DNA of 64,000 nucleotides from the NCBI GenBank assembly GCA_026225415.1, contig JAMFSS010000006.1, positions 161,046-225,045 of the forward strand, read 5' to 3'. The notes under the pieces are model-generated. The model was not told where the DNA came from and did no database searches. It was given only the letters and a program-made list of their open reading frames with translations. The DNA comes from Alphaproteobacteria bacterium (lineage in GTDB: Bacteria; Pseudomonadota; Alphaproteobacteria; UBA9219). Shown here in pieces: positions 1 to 61,030 of this stretch; position 1 is the first letter of the stretch; each line of letters begins with the position of its first letter. The position numbers and the translations under genes are program-made.

Positions 1-342
1 GGTTTCGCGATGCAATTCGCCATAGGTGATGTGACGAGCGGGCTCTGTGGGGATGTCGGGCTCCCAGATAAGTGCGGTTTGGTCGGCGCGTGTTTTAAGA
101 TGGCGGTCGATGCAATTGGCCGCGACATTCAAAATGCCATCTTCAAAATAGTTGATTTTCACATCGCCGGTAAAATTGCCGCCGTGGGTTTTGCTATAGG
201 GCTTTATCCAATCAAGAGTCTTGCCTTGTTCGCACCAGAACGCATCGGGGTCAGCAATGGATTGCGCATAAAGTTTTTTGTAACTATCGGCATCGATCCA
301 TGCCGATGCGGCGGAGGCGGGCGAAACGGGGATAAGGGTCAT
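1..342 (-). CDS. acs: acetyl-coenzyme A synthetase, N-terminal part (gene continues past window start)
   Basis: Manual minus-strand translation from a start codon at 340-342 gives MTLIPVSPASAASAWIDADSYKKLYAQSIADPDAFWCEQGKTLDWIKPYSKTHGGNFTGDVKINYFEDGILNVAANCIDRHLKTRADQTALIWEPDIP... This closely matches the Acs N-terminus (FWGEQGK.LDWIKPY, YEDG.LN.AANC.DRHL, A.IWE.D). No stop before the window edge, so it is absent from the ORF track. The + ORF 10..363 is its shadow. Confidence 0.7.
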   Translation of the reverse strand, partial: MTLIPVSPASAASAWIDADSYKKLYAQSIADPDAFWCEQGKTLDWIKPYSKTHGGNFTGDVKINYFEDGILNVAANCIDRHLKTRADQTALIWEPDIPTEPARHITYGELHRET

Positions 343-352
343 GTGTTTCCTG

Positions 353-2383
353 TTATTGGATAAGTGCGCCCAACAAAGCGCGCAACACGGCGGCGCAGAT
401 CAGGATAAGCGCCAGAAAGCTGCTGATGGATGCGGCCATCGGTTTGCCTGCGCCGCGCACCACACTTTCGCGGTTGTTGATTTTGGCTTCCATCGCATTG
501 ATTTCTTTTTGGGTGTTCAGATACAATAAACGCGCCGCGATAAAATCCTGACGGTCGCGTTCCATGCGGCGTTGATCATCGACCAGACGCAACAGCGACG
601 ACAGATTGCCGCTCTTGATCGTTTCCTGTGCCTGTTTTTTCAAATGATCGCGCAAGGCTTTGCTGAGGAAACGGCGCAAGGCAGGGTCGACAATGGAAGA
701 CAACCAACCGGCAAGCGAAGGCAGGTTCTCGGGCCCGTGGCGGTTCTGCATTTCGGCATACAGATTAAGCAAACCCAAGCCACGCGCCAAAGACCCTTCG
801 GGCGCCATCATGGCCGAGAAAAACGAGTCGCTGCGTTTATCGCGCACGATAAGGAAGGCGGCAATATGCCTGTCCATCGCCTCTTTGGGGCGGTTGCCTG
901 CCCCCGCGATGCGTTCCAACGCGGCCATCATCATTTTGGGTGTCGTTACATATTGGCCGCGTAAAATCGGGCTTTGGCAGGGCAGGCCGGGATTAAGTTC
1001 ATAGGTGACGCGTTCGATACCATTGCCGAACGAAGCTTTTTCGATAATGCCTTTCATGCGCTCGAAAGCCTGGCCCAGCGAAATAAAATCGCCCTTGCCG
1101 TCTTTTTGCATCTGTATCCACAAAGTCACCAGCTGGCTTGCGATAATTTCGGCAAGCGCCGGCAAATTTTGCGGATCAAACGATGTTTCGGCCAGCAAGG
1201 CCGCGATACCCGTGGGCATGGCGGAAATGCCGCGATAACGGATGGGCAAGGACGGGCTAAGCGCGATACAAACGCGGGTTACCAGCTGATCTTCATAATG
1301 GGTCGCTTTGCCGCCGGATTTCAAATCATGGATAACGCGTTCCACATCATGGGCGCGGTCTTCGTCGTTCATCGCGCGGCGCAACCATTTATGCAGCGAT
1401 TCATTTTCGATAACTTTGGCGGCTTCGGCCACATTGCCCGACAGCGCCAGCGCCAAAGGCGCTATCTGCCAATATTCCTTGCCGCCAAAATCAAAATGGC
1501 GCGACGAACGTTTGCCGGCGTCCGAACTTTTCGGCGTCATGCGGCGGCCATTCAGCCATTGTTCCAGATCATTCGCCGACCAGCGTTGATTGGAATCATC
1601 CGCCAGAAGCCCGCGCAAAAGCTCGATATGCGTTGTCGATAAACGGTGATTGCCGATAAGCGCGCCGAAACTGCCGCGCTGCATTTTCAGATCAATAATC
1701 GCCGCGTCATCCATATCCTGTAACGGGTTGCGCCCGATGACCATAAGCGCCAGCGTAACGCCAAAGGCGTAACAATCATCGGCAGGCAACCCCATGCCGC
1801 GGCCAAGCGGCGAGGCCAAGGCGCGTTCGACCGGTTCAAACAAAATGGGTTGCCCCATGCCGGCGGGCGATGACAGGCATTCGCCGATTTGCGGCGGCGA
1901 CGCGTTGCCGATACGCCAGAAAATATTGGTGGGGCGGATACCGTTATGGACTATCCCGTAATTATTCAGGACAACCAGACTGTTGATCATCGGCGTGATG
2001 AAATGCTGATGCACCGCATCTTCGCTTAGGGGCGTGTGGGTTTCATTGATGGTGGCGAACATGCGCGGTGCCACCGGCCTTTGATAGACAAAGGCAAAGG
2101 CGCGGGTTCCATCCATCCATGTGATAACACCGGAATCGACAAGCCGGATGATGCCGGGGCTGTCGATATTGCGCATGATTTGCGCCATATCGCTGCGCGG
2201 CGGCAATGTCGATTGGCAGATAATGGCAAAATAACTGCTGGCGGCGTCAAAACGGCTGCGCGCGGCATAGGCGTTGCCGCCGGTGCTGTTAAATTCGGGC
2301 AGGGGCTGGGACGGGATAATCTCGATCTGAGACCCCAGCGGGATGCCGTTGGCTGTGCCATTTTGCGCGGTGTCGTAAGACAT
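353..2383 (-). CDS. protein-kinase-like (pseudokinase) domain protein with C-terminal transmembrane anchor
   Basis: 676 aa ORF. The N-terminal ~280 aa show kinase-fold landmarks but degenerate catalytic motifs (HNGIRPTNIFW in place of HRDLKPxN, no clear VAIK lysine or DFG). The extreme C-terminus is hydrophobic (MAASISSFLALILICAAVLRALLGALIQ). Confidence 0.6.
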   Translation of the reverse strand: MSYDTAQNGTANGIPLGSQIEIIPSQPLPEFNSTGGNAYAARSRFDAASSYFAIICQSTLPPRSDMAQIMRNIDSPGIIRLVDSGVITWMDGTRAFAFVYQRPVAPRMFATINETHTPLSEDAVHQHFITPMINSLVVLNNYGIVHNGIRPTNIFWRIGNASPPQIGECLSSPAGMGQPILFEPVERALASPLGRGMGLPADDCYAFGVTLALMVIGRNPLQDMDDAAIIDLKMQRGSFGALIGNHRLSTTHIELLRGLLADDSNQRWSANDLEQWLNGRRMTPKSSDAGKRSSRHFDFGGKEYWQIAPLALALSGNVAEAAKVIENESLHKWLRRAMNDEDRAHDVERVIHDLKSGGKATHYEDQLVTRVCIALSPSLPIRYRGISAMPTGIAALLAETSFDPQNLPALAEIIASQLVTLWIQMQKDGKGDFISLGQAFERMKGIIEKASFGNGIERVTYELNPGLPCQSPILRGQYVTTPKMMMAALERIAGAGNRPKEAMDRHIAAFLIVRDKRSDSFFSAMMAPEGSLARGLGLLNLYAEMQNRHGPENLPSLAGWLSSIVDPALRRFLSKALRDHLKKQAQETIKSGNLSSLLRLVDDQRRMERDRQDFIAARLLYLNTQKEINAMEAKINNRESVVRGAGKPMAASISSFLALILICAAVLRALLGALIQ

Positions 2384-2464
2384 GGGGGAGAGAGGGGGGG
2401 GAAAGAGAGGGGTCAGAGCGAAGAGGAAGAAGGGAGAGAGTAAACCCTAGAGCATTTAGAGAGA

Positions 2465-3733
2465 TTAGGGAAATGCCTGATTGCGAAGCGTGGCATAAAA
2501 ACCGCTTTTTTCGGTAAAAGAGGGAATCGCGACAAGCTTTTCGCCTGCCCACAGCGCGGGTAGGGTTGCGCGGATACGTCCCTGGGGGATGTCGTGGCGC
2601 AAAATGGGGGCAAGTTGGTCGATGATGTCATGCGAAGGCATGCCCAAAGCGCGGATTTCGCCTTTGGGTGTTAGGGCGTCAGCGTTTATTACCCAACGCC
2701 CATCCCATGTAATTGGTTGTTCCGGTGATAACACACAGATTTCCGTTGCCGCCGCCGGTTCGCGGAAAAGCGTCACCTGTTTTTCGGTAAGGGAAATCAG
2801 GCAGCCATAAAGGCTGCGCGTGGTGTCATCTGCTGATGTCAGAATATGATCATAGGCATCGGCTAACGCATCCTGTTCCGGCGGGTAATCATTGGGATGG
2901 ATGATGCGCAAACAGATGGCGATTGCGCGGAGGCCAATCGCGCGGGGTGGTGTGGATAAGGCGCGGCGGTCGAGGCGGATGCTGCCGTATTTTTCAATCT
3001 GCGCGGTTTGGCGCAGGAATTCGTGGGTGATTGTTGCCAGCGCTTCGGTGGCTTCGGATGCCCGCGCGCCAAGCCGCAACAAATTTTCTGTTGTCAGCCC
3101 TTCTTGCGCCAGAAGCGGCATGATGTTGCGCAAACGTCCGCGTGTGAATTTATCCGATGCGTTGCTGGGGTCGGTGACAAATTGGATGTTATCTGTGTCG
3201 CATGTGGCGATTAACCGCGATTTGGGAAAGTTCAGAAAAGGGCGCAGCAGACGGATATTGCCGCGCATGCTGGCGGGTGCGATGCCGGATAATCCTTCAA
3301 CCGCGCTGCCTTTGGCGATACGCATCAAAATAGTTTCAGCCTGATCATCGGCATGATGCGCGGTTAGTAAATCTGTTACGCCATGTTGGTGGCAGGCTTG
3401 TAACAACAAATCATAACGCGCCTGCCGGGCTTTTTCGTGAATCGCGCCGGAAATTTGTGGGTGGTGCCAGCGCAGGATTTCGGCGCGGATACCCATTGTG
3501 CCCAGACTTCTTTTGACCTGTTCGGCTTCGGTGGTGGACTCAGAACGCAAGCCGTGATCGACGATAAAGGCAATGCAGGGGATATTTGCGCGTTTGATAC
3601 AAAAAGCCAAAGCCATCGAATCCGGCCCGCCGGAAATGGCCAGCGCGATTGGCGATGACAAAGGGGCGAAGGGGTTTAACGCTTGCGCAATATCATCGGC
3701 GCTCAGGGCTGTATCCCTTAACGTGCCGGGCAT
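2465..3733 (-). CDS. tilS: tRNA(Ile)-lysidine synthetase
   Basis: PP-loop motif SGGPDSMALA near the N-terminus. 422 aa. Sits next to the tol-pal cpoB gene, as is typical in alphaproteobacteria. Confidence 0.85.
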   Translation of the reverse strand: MPGTLRDTALSADDIAQALNPFAPLSSPIALAISGGPDSMALAFCIKRANIPCIAFIVDHGLRSESTTEAEQVKRSLGTMGIRAEILRWHHPQISGAIHEKARQARYDLLLQACHQHGVTDLLTAHHADDQAETILMRIAKGSAVEGLSGIAPASMRGNIRLLRPFLNFPKSRLIATCDTDNIQFVTDPSNASDKFTRGRLRNIMPLLAQEGLTTENLLRLGARASEATEALATITHEFLRQTAQIEKYGSIRLDRRALSTPPRAIGLRAIAICLRIIHPNDYPPEQDALADAYDHILTSADDTTRSLYGCLISLTEKQVTLFREPAAATEICVLSPEQPITWDGRWVINADALTPKGEIRALGMPSHDIIDQLAPILRHDIPQGRIRATLPALWAGEKLVAIPSFTEKSGFYATLRNQAFP

Positions 3734-4572
3734 TTCAATCTTGTGCGCTCATCATCGGCGCGCGCTTTGATCGAAGCGGAAGCGTTGGGGTATTTGCTTT
3801 TCAGCTCGCCCAGCGTGACGCAGGCATCCGGTATTTTATTGATCTGACCCAACGACATGCCCAGTTTCAACAGGCTGTCGGGCGCTTTGGTGCCGCGCGG
3901 ATTGGTTTGAAACGCATCGGCGAAAGCGACTGCCGATTGGTCGAATTTGGCGCGGACATACAAGGTTTCGCCGTACCAATATTTGGCGTTGTCGATCAAT
4001 TTGTCTTTGGGGTTTTTTTCGATGAATGTTTTGAAAGCGGTTTCGGCGTCGGGATAATTGGCGGCGCGTAATAAACCAAAGGCGCGTTCATATTGTTCTT
4101 CTGTCGTCAGGCCGTAATCGGCGGGTGCGTTGGGCAAAGGGGGCGATTGCGGATTATTCACGCCGCCTGTTACCTTGCCATTCTGCATTTTAATGGCGCC
4201 CAAGGTGCCGTTTTGCTCGATAACGGGTGCGGGCGGTTGTACCACCACCGGAGGTGGGGGTGGCGGGGCCGCTGCTTGTTGTTGCAAACTGACGACTGTG
4301 GATTCCAGTTTGGTCAGACGCGCATCATCATCGGCCTGTAGCCGCTGCATCGCTGCATCGACGCGGCGCACCGCGAATTCGACCTGTTCGATGCGGCCGC
4401 TAAGAGTGCGGAGTTGATCTTCAAGAGTGGTGATGCGTGTTTCTGTGCGCGTGCTTGATGACGCCGCGGGCGGTTGTTGGGGTATGTAGGTGGGCGCGTC
4501 ATCCTGTGCCCATACCGGGGCGGTGGTCAGAAGGAGGACAAGGCCAAGCGCGGAAAAACGGGAAAGGGGCAT
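3718..4572 (-). CDS. cpoB: tol-pal system protein YbgF/CpoB (coiled-coil plus TPR)
   Basis: Signal peptide MPLSRFSALGLVLLLTTAPVWAQ, a coiled-coil segment, a Pro-rich linker and a C-terminal TPR-like region (YWYGETLYVRAKFDQSAVAF). Confidence 0.75.
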   Translation of the reverse strand: MPLSRFSALGLVLLLTTAPVWAQDDAPTYIPQQPPAASSSTRTETRITTLEDQLRTLSGRIEQVEFAVRRVDAAMQRLQADDDARLTKLESTVVSLQQQAAAPPPPPPVVVQPPAPVIEQNGTLGAIKMQNGKVTGGVNNPQSPPLPNAPADYGLTTEEQYERAFGLLRAANYPDAETAFKTFIEKNPKDKLIDNAKYWYGETLYVRAKFDQSAVAFADAFQTNPRGTKAPDSLLKLGMSLGQINKIPDACVTLGELKSKYPNASASIKARADDERTRLKCPAR

Positions 4573-4685: not shown

Positions 4686-4769
4686 ACCCCCCACCGGCAA
4701 AAACTAAGACTTACGCCCCAAAGCGTAAGCCTAAGTTTTTGCTTCCTCCCCCCAAGGGGGGAAGGAAGG
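4686..4769. repeat. ~85 bp double-hairpin intergenic repeat, copy A (second copy at 8434..8516)
   Basis: About 90% identical to 8434..8516. Contains two stem-loops (cttacgc/gcgtaag and cccccc/gggggg). Confidence 0.7.
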
Positions 4770-4770
4770 A

Positions 4771-4800
4771 ACAAAAAACCGGAGACATTTTCATGTCCCC
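4771..4800 (-). terminator. rho-independent terminator for the small minus-strand gene 4840..5073
   Basis: Hairpin ggagacat-tttc-atgtcccc. On the minus strand it is followed by GGTTTTTTGT. Confidence 0.5.
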
Positions 4801-26240: not shown

Positions 26241-26336
26241 GAACGAGGTAGGAACGAGATGGAAAGAGAGATAGGCGAGAAAAAAGGAGAATATAGTTTT
26301 TCTCGTTCTATCTCGATTTTCTCCTTCTTTTCTCTT
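26241..26336. repeat. polypurine/polypyrimidine imperfect inverted repeat
   Basis: gaacgaggtaggaacgagatggaaagagagataggcgagaaaaaaggagaa / tttttctcgttctatctcgattttctccttcttttctcttc. Confidence 0.5.
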
Positions 26337-28175
26337 CTATCCTCTTAACTTGGTCTGACATTCTTGCAAAATATCACGCGCGATGGGTGCCGCTTCATGC
26401 GCACCGCTGCCACCATGCTCAACGATAACCGAAATAGCGAAACGCGGCGCACCCACCGGTGCGAAACCGGCGAACAAAGCATGGTCGCGCTCTTTCCATG
26501 GAAGGGCTTCGTTTTTCGTCACGCCTTCTTCATGTTCGGCTTCGGAAATATGGCGCACCTGTGATGTGCCCGTCTTGCCGGCCATCTCCATACCGTCTTG
26601 CATGATACGCGCGGCATAGGCTGTGCCCTGATTGGAATTGATGACGTTCGACATCCCTTCGCGCACCAAAGCCAGATGGCGCGGGTCCAACCCCATCGAT
26701 GGCCAGATTTCGGGCGCGACCAAAGACCCACCAATTTTTTGCGCGATATGCGGTTTGACGGCATAACCGTCATTGGCGATACGCGCCGCCATCACCGCCA
26801 ATTGCAACGGCGACGCCAGCATATAACCTTGGCCGATGGCGGCGATCAAAGTTTCGCCCTGTTCCCAATTTTGATGCTTATTGGCCTGTTTCCATGCGCG
26901 ACCCGGCACCAAACCGCCGCGCTCATGCGGCAAATCGATGCCCAGTTTTTGTCCCCAGCCGAAACGCTCGGCCATCGCCTGAATTTTATCGATGCCGACG
27001 CGGTGACCCAGATCGTAAAAATAAGTATCGCATGAACCTGCTATCGCTTCGGTCAGATTGACATGGCCGTGGCCGTTCTTTTTCCAGCAATGGAATTTAT
27101 GGTCGCCAAATTCATAATAGCCGGGACAGAAAGTGCGCTGGTTATTGTCGGTAATATCGGCATCCAACGCGGCCATCGCCACAATGGGTTTAATGGTCGA
27201 ACCCGGCGCGTAAACGCCGCCGATAATTTTGTTTAATAACGGCGAATGGATATCATTGTTCAGATTGTTCCAATCATCCTGGCTGATGCCAAAGGTGAAA
27301 AGATTGGGATCGAAACTGGGCTGCGATGCCAATGCCAAAACTTCGCCACTATGAATATCCATTAACACGGCGGCTGCGCCCTCTTCGCGCGCCAACCGTT
27401 GCTGCATAAATTGTTGTAACCCGATATCGATGGCCAATGTTAATTCCTGGCCTGCTATCGGGTCGTGGCGCACCAATTCCTGCACCACGCGGCCATGCGC
27501 GTTGACTTCCATTTCGACATCGCCCGCGGTGCCGCGCATCTGCTCTTCATATTGTTTTTCGATGCCGTTTTTGCCGATGCGGAAACCCGGCACGCTTAAA
27601 ACTTTGGCGTCTTCGTCATCATCGGCGTCATCGATTTCGCTTTGTGACGCTGTGCCGACATAACCCAGAATATGCGCGGTCGTTTCGCCGTAAGGGTATG
27701 AACGGACTTCGCCCGCATCAATATCGACGCCCGGCATGTCGGGGGTGTGCACCGCTATAACATCCATCTGGTCGCGGGTCAGATTATCCTGCACCACAAC
27801 CGCGTTGAAACCGTTGCGCTCTTTCATTTCGCGTTCGATGCGTTTGCGGTCGGCATCGTCAATTTTCACGTAAGGATCAAGTTTCACCAGAACATCCTGC
27901 AAATCCGTTACCTGTTCCGGCAACAAAATCACGCGGTAGGTCTGGTCGTTCATCGCCAGCGCCACGCCGTCACGGTCAAGGATGCGGCCACGCGGCGGTG
28001 CTATCATCCGTAAATTGATGCGGTTTTCTTCGGCCATCTGATGATATTCCGCGCCCTGCACCACTTGCAGATAATAAAGCCGTCCGGCGAGAATGGAAAA
28101 CAATGCGCCCTGCGCACCGCCGATGAGAACAGCGCGTCGTGTAAAAATGCGTGATTTTTCGGTATTGCCAGCCAT
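26337..28175 (-). CDS. mrdA: penicillin-binding protein 2 (peptidoglycan D,D-transpeptidase)
   Basis: Transpeptidase motifs STIK (APGSTIKP), SxN and KTGT (AGKTGTSQV). Downstream of mreC-mreD. Confidence 0.9.
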   Translation of the reverse strand: MAGNTEKSRIFTRRAVLIGGAQGALFSILAGRLYYLQVVQGAEYHQMAEENRINLRMIAPPRGRILDRDGVALAMNDQTYRVILLPEQVTDLQDVLVKLDPYVKIDDADRKRIEREMKERNGFNAVVVQDNLTRDQMDVIAVHTPDMPGVDIDAGEVRSYPYGETTAHILGYVGTASQSEIDDADDDEDAKVLSVPGFRIGKNGIEKQYEEQMRGTAGDVEMEVNAHGRVVQELVRHDPIAGQELTLAIDIGLQQFMQQRLAREEGAAAVLMDIHSGEVLALASQPSFDPNLFTFGISQDDWNNLNNDIHSPLLNKIIGGVYAPGSTIKPIVAMAALDADITDNNQRTFCPGYYEFGDHKFHCWKKNGHGHVNLTEAIAGSCDTYFYDLGHRVGIDKIQAMAERFGWGQKLGIDLPHERGGLVPGRAWKQANKHQNWEQGETLIAAIGQGYMLASPLQLAVMAARIANDGYAVKPHIAQKIGGSLVAPEIWPSMGLDPRHLALVREGMSNVINSNQGTAYAARIMQDGMEMAGKTGTSQVRHISEAEHEEGVTKNEALPWKERDHALFAGFAPVGAPRFAISVIVEHGGSGAHEAAPIARDILQECQTKLRG

Positions 28176-52934: not shown

Positions 52935-53170
52935 AAACAACTCATTGATATATAACGATTTATATTGTTTCGTGAGCGAAACAATAACGCTATCCTTGCT
53001 TTTCTCGCGCCAAAAGCATAAGAATAGCGCCGTTCGGGGGGTGTTCCTCTGCACGTAACTTAAAAACTCACATATGTTCGGCTTTTGCGGTCAATCCCGC
53101 ACTTGCCATCCGGTGCTTGAAATTCAAGTACACAACATATGGTGGTCTAACCGGAAAAGGAAATACGCAC

Positions 53171-53962
53171 ATGACGATGCCAATCGTTACTCTCCGCCAA
53201 TTATTCGAAGCTGGCGTTCATTTCGGCCATAACACGCGCCGCTGGAACCCCAAGATGCAAGCCTATCTTTTCGGCGTGCGCAACAATGTCCACATCATCG
53301 ATCTGGAACAAACCGTTCCCCTGTTCCAACGCGCGTTGCAACAATTGCGTGACACCGCTGCCTCGGGCGGTCGCGTGCTGTTCGTTGGCACCAAGCGTCA
53401 GGCGGCCGACAAAGTAGCCGATGCCGCCAAGCGTTGCGGCCAATATTATGTGAATCACCGTTGGTTGGGTGGCATGCTCACCAACTGGAAAACCATTTCG
53501 CAATCCATCAAGCGTTTGCGCGAAATCGACGACAAGCTGACATCGACGTCGCACAAAGTGACGAAGAAGGAAGCGCTCGGCATGTCGCGCGATCGCGACA
53601 AGCTGGAAAAGGCATTGGGCGGCATCAAGGATATGGGCGGCTTGCCTGATCTGATCTTCGTCATCGACACTTTGAAGGAAGACATCGCGATCGCCGAAGC
53701 CGTGAAACTGGGCATCCCCGTTATCGCCATCGTCGACAGCAATTCAGACCCCGCCAGCATCACCTTCCCGATCCCGGGTAATGACGACGCTTCGCGCGCG
53801 ATCGATCTGTATTGTGAATTGGCGTCGCAGGCCATTCTGGATGGTATCGAAGCCGAAATCGGTTCGAACGCCAAGGCCAAGGGCAAGGATCTGGGCGCTT
53901 CGGATGTTGTGCCAGCCAGCGAAACAACGATCGAAGAAACCAAAACCGCCGTTAATGGCTAA
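53171..53962 (+). CDS. rpsB: 30S ribosomal protein S2
   Basis: [21 protein letters not shown]-terminus. AAGGA RBS. Confidence 0.95.
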
Positions 53963-60805: not shown

Positions 60806-61030
60806 GTCCTGTCCTATAATAGGTGGAATATCCGGCGTGGATATATCAGCGTGGAGGGGAAGTGTAAAGAAGGGCGAGAGAAGAGAGGAAGCAGAGGGAG
60901 GGAAGATGAGCAAGGAGAGAAAAAGGTTAAGAACGATGATAGGAGAGATTCAAGGCAATTTCTCTGGGTTTTCCTCCTCGTTGCTCCTTCTTGCTCTTTC
61001 TACTCCCCCCTTCTTTCTGCTTGACCATAT
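60806..61030. repeat. polypurine/polypyrimidine imperfect inverted repeat upstream of prs
   Basis: A GA-rich tract of about 110 nt followed by a TC-rich tract of about 70 nt (…gatgagcaaggagagaaaaagg… / …cctcctcgttgctccttcttgctctttctactcccccc). Confidence 0.45.

Follow-up and report, generated by a model that had tools for sequence, protein, structure and literature searches.

Bacterial pseudokinases have barely been studied. Seven families are distinguished in a 2025 review (PMC12599244). In ActPs1-3, GLW and CP1, a Hanks-type fold is kept with the β3 Lys, the Asp of the HRD motif and the Asp of the DFG motif all replaced. The same combination is found in a 676-residue protein encoded between tilS and acs on the reverse strand of contig JAMFSS010000006.1 of an alphaproteobacterium. 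The stretch of this contig that was analysed, 64,000 nt long, is termed the window. Members of the family to which this protein belongs are annotated as "serine/threonine protein kinase" or as "hypothetical protein".

None of the described families with which the window protein was compared fits it; for DYD, the seventh, no detailed comparison was made (PMC12599244). Relative to ActPs1-3, GLW and CP1, the window family has a motif of its own, H-[RN]-[AG]-I-R-x-x-N, with [VIMQ]-L-G-[ED] standing for DFG and a Cys at β3. The GLW family is named by the residues that it has in place of HRD and carries Leu or Trp at β3, whereas the window family has H-[RN]-[AG] and Cys at these positions. CP1 is soluble and possesses a COG3899 ATPase domain, while the window protein displays no such domain in Pfam and NCBIfam scans and has a hydrophobic tail. 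DLHK, unlike the window family, retains the HRD Asp, and ActPs1-3 are actinobacterial whereas the window family is alphaproteobacterial (PMC12599244). Beyond these differences, the window family possesses an additional helical domain of ~320 residues without known fold and a terminal tail anchor.

Two membrane-linked systems are also close. EssB/YukC, of type VII secretion, combines a cytoplasmic pseudokinase domain with a one-helix tether and acts as a non-catalytic scaffold. However, EssB has an extracellular domain after its transmembrane (TM) helix and belongs to the ess/yuk locus, while the window protein ends with its helix and is found in a housekeeping context, tilS and acs here, purA and rpoH in distant relatives. 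In the mycobacterial ActPs3 linked to MviN/MurJ, a pseudokinase domain is likewise physically joined with a membrane protein, but as a fusion with the polytopic flippase, whereas the window protein is separate, tail-anchored and has at most a small membrane-protein gene as a neighbour. No literature specific to the window family was found. With its distinct architecture, it represents a family of bacterial pseudokinases not characterised so far.

In the reading that we favour, with a probability of about 0.6, the gene encodes a tail-anchored, catalytically dead membrane protein of a large and ancient alphaproteobacterial family, its leader belongs to a class characteristic of the lineage, and the C8 run within this leader is not a switch. 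An N-terminal kinase fold devoid of catalytic residues would be followed by the helical domain of ~320 residues, a stalk helix and a single C-terminal anchor, the whole protein lying on the cytoplasmic face of the inner membrane. Its most likely role would be that of a non-catalytic, membrane-tethered scaffold or of a conformational sensor, and in most lineages it probably pairs with a small polytopic membrane protein encoded just 3' of it. Translation would initiate through an open, structure-free and pyrimidine-rich landing pad of the ribosomal protein S1 type, and not through Shine-Dalgarno (SD):anti-SD pairing. The composition of the leader may also load Rho when ribosomes slow.

The kinase-fold domain, the helical domain and the tail

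The sequence of the N-terminal domain is only marginally recognised as a kinase by Pfam (Pkinase, 32.1 bits for a cut-off of 31.7). A phmmer search of the PDB retrieves a kinase at E 7e-4, and a profile of 69 homologues reaches E 1e-6, with kinases only and over residues ~40-310 only. The AlphaFold2 model, built on the alignment of 69 sequences, has a pLDDT of 89 and a pTM of 0.81. Foldseek aligns it to ~1,900 kinase chains of the PDB with a probability of 1.0 and target-normalised TM-scores of 0.6-0.72, among which PknA, PknB, CaMKK2, KSR1 and WNK3 are found at ~0.7, also with a probability of 1.0. An earlier note, made on the letters of the window, had proposed a kinase-fold scaffold without VAIK Lys or DFG and with HNG in place of HRD; structure prediction returned a kinase fold and not another one, and the losses extend to the whole family, as detailed below.

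The catalytic positions were placed using a HMMER alignment to SNRK together with the strand order in the AlphaFold2 model. The position of the β3 (VAIK) Lys is occupied by C56 (2216-2218, in AIIC56), the HRD motif by H146-N147-G148 (1940-1948), with G148 at the Asp, and the DFG motif by Q165-I-G167 (1883-1891), with Q165 at the Asp. The conservation of these positions was assessed in a family alignment of 145 representatives, each standing for one cluster at 50% identity. At β3, Cys is found in 100 of 146 sequences, followed by Ala, Ser, Ile, Leu and Gly, without Lys among the listed residues. The most frequent residues at the HRD Asp are Ala, Gly, Ser and Asn, and those at the DFG Asp are Val, Ile, Met, Gln, Leu and Ala; Asp is listed at neither. 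The glycine-rich loop has degenerated family-wide, with G35 present in only 36 of 146 sequences. In the same 145 representatives, H146, N153, the subdomain IX Asp (D203) and the subdomain XI Arg (R267) are near-invariant. The same pattern of catalytic losses recurs in distant family members of the cultured Telmatospirillum, Curvivirga and Tagaea.

Thus, none of the three residues expected of an active Ser/Thr kinase (β3 Lys, HRD Asp, DFG Asp) is found, and the kinase fold with all three absent family-wide corresponds to the sequence definition of a pseudokinase. Since the losses are common to the 145 representatives and to the distant cultured members, the protein is, as judged from these sequences, a family-wide and old pseudokinase and not a recently decayed gene. 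A rescue of the β3 Lys by a Lys of the glycine-rich loop, as in WNK kinases, is ruled out, the corresponding position being A40. The NCBIfam matches to LanL and MADS6 are restricted to the C-lobe common to kinases and score far below their cut-offs; as these matches are generic and the genomic context is of the housekeeping type, a lanthipeptide or defence role was rejected.

The all-α domain that follows has no match to any solved structure, enzyme structure or Pfam family. It harbors the near-invariant residues E457, R458, Y461, C469, S471, D504, R505, H506 and Q546, a polar cluster that could, from its conservation, be a binding or a catalytic site through C469, D504 and H506 among others. 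A confidently modelled domain without structural relative is at hand, and the family is experimentally tractable through its cultured members, Telmatospirillum siberiense and Curvivirga aplysinae.

The tail (residues 645-676) is the sole hydrophobic segment of the protein. Kyte-Doolittle windows of 19 residues exceed 1.6 only when starting at residues 645-658, with a peak of 2.68 at 657-675, and the protein ends 3-5 residues beyond the hydrophobic segment. In the AlphaFold2 model the tail continues a helix of ~70 residues. A hydrophobic C-terminal tail is present in 143 of the 145 representatives. By hydropathy, the protein is therefore predicted to be tail-anchored, with a single C-terminal hydrophobic helix and neither an N-terminal signal nor another TM segment, as had been surmised from its sequence.

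The start codon at 2383 is unambiguous, since an in-frame TAG (2449-2447) lies upstream with no ATG, GTG or TTG between it and 2383, the second in-frame start is codon 59, within conserved β-strands, and all homologues share the N-terminus M-[AST]-[YF]. The sequence-level statements made beforehand on this open reading frame (ORF), namely a protein of 676 residues ending in a single hydrophobic anchor, a C/T-only tract before its start codon and a C8 run, were all confirmed.

The pyrimidine-rich leader and translation initiation

The 60-nt leader of the pseudokinase gene is composed of 2 A, 34 C, 2 G and 22 T, hence of 56 pyrimidines. No purine is found from -1 to -29, so that no SD is possible, as had been noticed before, and the purine-rich SD located 4-15 nt upstream of the start in canonical SD-led mRNAs is absent. 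The gene does not resemble those with leaderless mRNAs either, as the 29 upstream nt, made of C and T only, contain no TAnnnT element. RNA folding gives a z-score of -0.97, with the tract unpaired and no structured element. No Rfam family was matched at the leader, whether by E-value in the leader region or by gathering threshold in the whole window.

Initiation without SD has been documented in several systems. Ribosomal protein S1 binds pyrimidine-rich regions 5' of the start codon (PMC3296737), non-SD genes depend on S1 and on weak local structure (PMC5397173), and the majority of Caulobacter genes are non-SD (PMC4117421). The window leader shares with these the absence of SD, an open start and a pyrimidine-rich upstream region (PMC5397173, PMC3296737, PMC4117421). 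It differs from them in being nearly pure C/U and rich in C, while theirs are rich in U and A.

Such leaders are not restricted to the pseudokinase gene. Tracts of at least 14 nt made only of purines or only of pyrimidines (R/Y tracts) number 20 in the window for 2.9 expected; they are ~7-fold enriched, mostly intergenic, and the leader harbors the longest one (29 + 21 nt). Among ORFs taken from their first ATG, 7 of 55 window genes reach at least 73% pyrimidine at -30 to -1, for 0.8% expected. Other window genes, acs included, have AGGA-type SDs, and the anti-SD is for this reason presumably canonical. Examples of the pyrimidine-rich leaders are those of the starts at 4572(-), 31222(-), 38728(-), 38834(+) and 33500(+); together with that at 60913(-), they are SD-less, C/T-rich, 25-50 nt long and located 3' of -10-like elements. 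The ybgF-like gene, one of these cases, has a signal peptide directly at its Met, and the promoter scan called TTGACC-16-TACAGT at a distance of 26 nt upstream.

The comparison of orthologous leaders over -25 to -1 reveals a gradient. Leaders with at least 72% pyrimidine are found in 14 of 20 orthologues of at least 57% identity, 5 of 22 orthologues of 45-56% identity and none of 25 orthologues of at most 44% identity, and SD-like 4-mers in 0/20, 4/22 and 15/25, respectively. The flanking genes of the same loci have pyrimidine leaders in 11%, 4% and 0% of cases in the three identity classes. The pyrimidine leader of the pseudokinase gene thus tracks phylogeny, and leaders of this class seem limited to a single uncultured clade. 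From these counts, the SD-less C/U leader looks like a lineage-wide class, comprising about one in nine genes, and not a peculiarity of the pseudokinase gene. Of the non-canonical initiation signal suggested in the earlier note, the SD-less leader stands, being kept in the close clade; its specificity for this gene does not, the class being common to about one in nine genes.

This clade-specific swap from SD to purine-free C/U leaders on orthologous genes offers a clean natural comparison for SD-independent initiation and for Rho coupling. Furthermore, SD-less C/U leaders matter for those gene callers that rely on ribosome-binding-site motifs in metagenome-assembled genomes (MAGs).

Alternative readings of the protein and of its leader

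Several points weigh against the reading given above. The conserved pocket-side C56 and C169, and the acidic residue after G167 (Glu or Asp in 138 of 146 sequences), leave room for ligand binding or for atypical chemistry. The cluster of the helical domain contains Cys, His and Asp and, if it proved to be an active site, would make "scaffold" a wrong term. The scaffold role is drawn from sequence and model, and membrane insertion from hydropathy only. The candidate -10 of the gene, TAGGGT, is degenerate and was not called by the promoter scan, so that the gene may be transcribed by read-through from tilS. Lastly, homopurine and homopyrimidine tracts also occur at gene 3' ends and in reverse orientation, and some are thus not translation signals. 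Concerning the latter, some R/Y tracts, at 26277-26291, 26317-26338 and 4742-4771, form complementary arms of hairpins located between convergent genes or 5' of the ybgF-like gene, so that not all R/Y tracts are leaders.

A less probable alternative takes the family for an undescribed alphaproteobacterial signalling module of the membrane, widely conserved and made of a tail-anchored pseudokinase, a new helical fold and a small polytopic partner, to which the Cys/His/Asp cluster or the pocket cysteines could give a ligand-sensing or enzymatic role. Linked to it would be a dedicated mode of SD-independent initiation or Rho coupling, evolved in this clade and using purine-free C/U leaders on about a tenth of the genes.

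The leader might also be mainly a Rho-loading (rut-like) site, which would couple transcription to initiation or end the read-through from tilS. This explanation, compatible with the favoured one, is tentative and rather unlikely as the main function. A C-rich and G-poor composition is what Rho prefers. The leader falls in the top 78-nt window for C over G of the 64 kb on either strand (41 C, 6 G), contains 31 YC dimers within its 60 nt, stays unpaired in the folding prediction, and follows the tilS stop, where the RNA would be ribosome-free. The next-ranked 78-nt windows are also nearly all located at gene 5' ends. However, most of the sister leaders are only 25-35 nt long, below the typical Rho footprint, and a Rho effect in this lineage would be deduced from composition only. 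It is likewise by composition only that the leader resembles a rut-like site, defined as about 60-80 nt of untranslated, unstructured, C-rich and G-poor RNA.

As to the protein, the kinase fold or the helical domain might perform atypical chemistry, as in AMPylation by SelO or glutamylation by SidJ, or bind a small-molecule or redox signal via its cysteines. Catalytic precedents among "pseudokinases" do exist (PMC12599244). H146, N153, R63 and G167-[ED]168, all near-invariant, surround the former active site together with C56 and C169 (118 of 146 sequences), and the near-invariant E457, R458, Y461, C469, S471, D504, R505 and H506 of the helical domain may be viewed in the same way. Yet the glycine-rich loop is degenerate, the three canonical catalytic side chains are all replaced, with no Lys listed at β3, and the helical domain has no structural match to any enzyme. 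We consider this possibility unlikely, and keep a non-catalytic scaffold or sensor as the more probable role.

The tract could instead result from a neutral, low-complexity expansion similar to a CT microsatellite, or reflect a structure at the DNA level, such as a mirror repeat of the H-DNA type or a template-strand G-quadruplex. The window leader is indeed ~30 nt longer than those of its relatives by an extra CT-rich sequence, and the enriched R/Y tracts are present in both orientations and also at gene 3' ends. The + strand at 2384-2412 fits the G-quadruplex pattern (G3+N1-7)x4, with 4 such motifs in the window for 1.45 expected, a marginal excess. However, both the pyrimidine richness and the absence of SD are kept in 14 of 20 close orthologues, although their sequences no longer align, of the six tracts within 40 nt of a start, five have their pyrimidines on the coding strand, and the G-quadruplex potential is not conserved. 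A neutral or DNA-level origin is improbable. At the 5' end of the gene, the template strand carries two canonical G-quadruplex motifs in a span of 120 nt (2297-2315 and 2384-2412, + strand).

The earlier note had also considered the C8 run as a slipped-strand or phase-variable element. A 10-nt spacer (TCTCTCCCCC) separates the run from the ATG. It shares with the contingency loci of Neisseria, Haemophilus and Campylobacter a poly-C/G of 8 nt near a gene start, but, in contrast with these, it lies outside the ORF and outside any promoter spacer, it is neither conserved nor enriched, and no length polymorphism is seen between the two assemblies compared. It is located in the leader without flanking hexamers, 3' of the sole promoter-like element and 5' of the ATG, so that both the reading frame and the -35/-10 spacing would be left intact by any change in its length. 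Only 1 C/G run of at least 8 nt is counted in the window for 1.7 expected from a first-order Markov model, and runs of at least 7 and at least 6 nt are also at or under expectation. In an alignment of 17 leaders, the run sits within a stretch of ~30 nt found only in the window leader. Over the last 60 nt, the maximal run length is 3-8 nt in the 20 closest orthologues (at least 57% identity), with variable base and position; the leader of one relative (L002) has a C7 run. The only independent assembly found (Logan L069, SRR18933205) has the same C8, giving one length in two assemblies. No further copy of the locus was found in the collections searched, where the protein forms a cluster of one member and an exact-protein look-up gave one Logan contig; a scan of metagenome contigs with an 18-mer returned 25 unrelated matches and no further copy. 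The C8 run is best viewed as part of the low-complexity tract, and phase variation is unsupported: that the run turns pseudokinase expression on and off is highly improbable, since, although its length would permit slippage and only 10 nt separate it from the start, and despite the C7 of L002, it is outside the ORF and the -35/-10 interval, at chance frequency, unconserved in position and length in 20 close orthologues and unchanged in the independent assembly, no other assembly of the species having been found.

Family distribution and genomic context

The family is large. Among representatives at 50% identity, 2,106 hits are obtained at E<=1e-3 and 921 at E<=1e-30, nearly all of 660-730 residues, which gives at least 921 clusters, and 349 homologues have the same length as the window protein. 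The genomic context was compared in 68 loci from species-representative genomes, all from Alphaproteobacteria of Rhodospirillales type, allowing for a few mislabelled MAGs. The features of the window locus are collected in Table 1.

Table 1. Features of the pseudokinase locus in the window, with the basis of each assignment.
Feature	Positions	Strand	Basis
Coding sequence of the 676-residue pseudokinase, predicted tail-anchored (ATG start)	353..2383	-	ORF list; stop codon 353-355; 349 same-length homologues; 921 representative clusters at E<=1e-30
Protein-kinase-fold domain, residues ~13-290	1514..2347	-	AlphaFold2; Foldseek; Pfam Pkinase; column counts in 145 representatives
All-α domain, fold unmatched, residues ~291-600 (~320 residues)	584..1513	-	Near-invariant polar cluster
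Stalk helix, residues ~601-645	449..583	-	DSSP on the model: one continuous helix 604-675, leading into the anchor
Predicted C-terminal hydrophobic tail anchor, residues ~646-676	356..448	-	Kyte-Doolittle
SD-less, C/U-rich, unstructured 5' leader	2384..2443	-	Sequence; composition; RNA folding; orthologue comparison
Homopolymeric C8 (read as G8 on the + strand) within the low-complexity leader	2394..2401	-	Sequence; same length in Logan assembly L069
Degenerate copy of the conserved non-coding block GGAAAAAATGATTTAGAATC	2444..2464	-	17-locus leader alignment
tilS (upstream context gene)	2465..3733	-	Pfam PP-loop ATP_bind_3, E 1e-49
acs 5' end (downstream context gene)	1..342	-	Pfam ACAS_N, E 7.8e-18; AGGAAA SD at 346-351

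The order ybgF-like, tilS, pseudokinase is conserved in the close clade. The acs gene, whose start had been noted just past the pseudokinase stop, has its ATG at 342-340, 10 nt past the TAA at 355-353, with its AGGAAA in between. It is adjacent to the pseudokinase gene in only 4 of the 20 loci of the close clade (L002, L003, L004, L009), and its adjacency implies no functional link with the pseudokinase.

In distant loci, purA is found upstream, and rpoH-like and rluD-like genes downstream. The complete order in L042-L065 is serA, hisZ-like, purA, pseudokinase and small membrane protein, followed by rpoH-like sigma and rluD-like genes in the opposite orientation. This order appears to be the ancestral context, from which the gene would have been moved behind tilS in the close clade.

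The small membrane protein mentioned above is polytopic and ~165-215 residues long; in 30 related loci, its gene lies directly 3' of that of the pseudokinase, in the same orientation. It belongs to no Pfam family and has a conserved C-terminus (...LKxxWGPDVA). Examples are found at 6049-6576 in L014, 6027-6539 in L025 and 5995-6489 in L045, besides 27 other loci. A tblastn search of the window with this protein gave nothing better than E 0.05, and its gene is not adjacent to that of the pseudokinase in the window's clade.

Upstream of the leader, a non-coding block GGAAAAAATGATTTAGAATC follows the tilS stop in the relatives, and the window copy ends with TAGGGT (2444-2449). Its conservation suggests that the block is probably a -10 region or an operator. 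A scan for consensus sigma-70 promoters and terminators made no call in the spacer between tilS and the pseudokinase gene, so that the candidate -10 is proposed from the conserved block in the relatives and not from the scan. The block (2444-2476 in the window; L001-L039) is often preceded by an inverted repeat TTTCC...GGAAA overlapping the last tilS codons. The corresponding hairpin around the tilS stop is weak and inconsistent across 16 loci, and is not claimed.

Elsewhere in the window, an rpsB leader RNA (RF01815, 46.3 bits) is detected at 53067-53166(+), ahead of an ORF at 53117-53962. The one other Rfam match of the window that exceeds the gathering threshold is a tRNA gene at 12806-12889(+).

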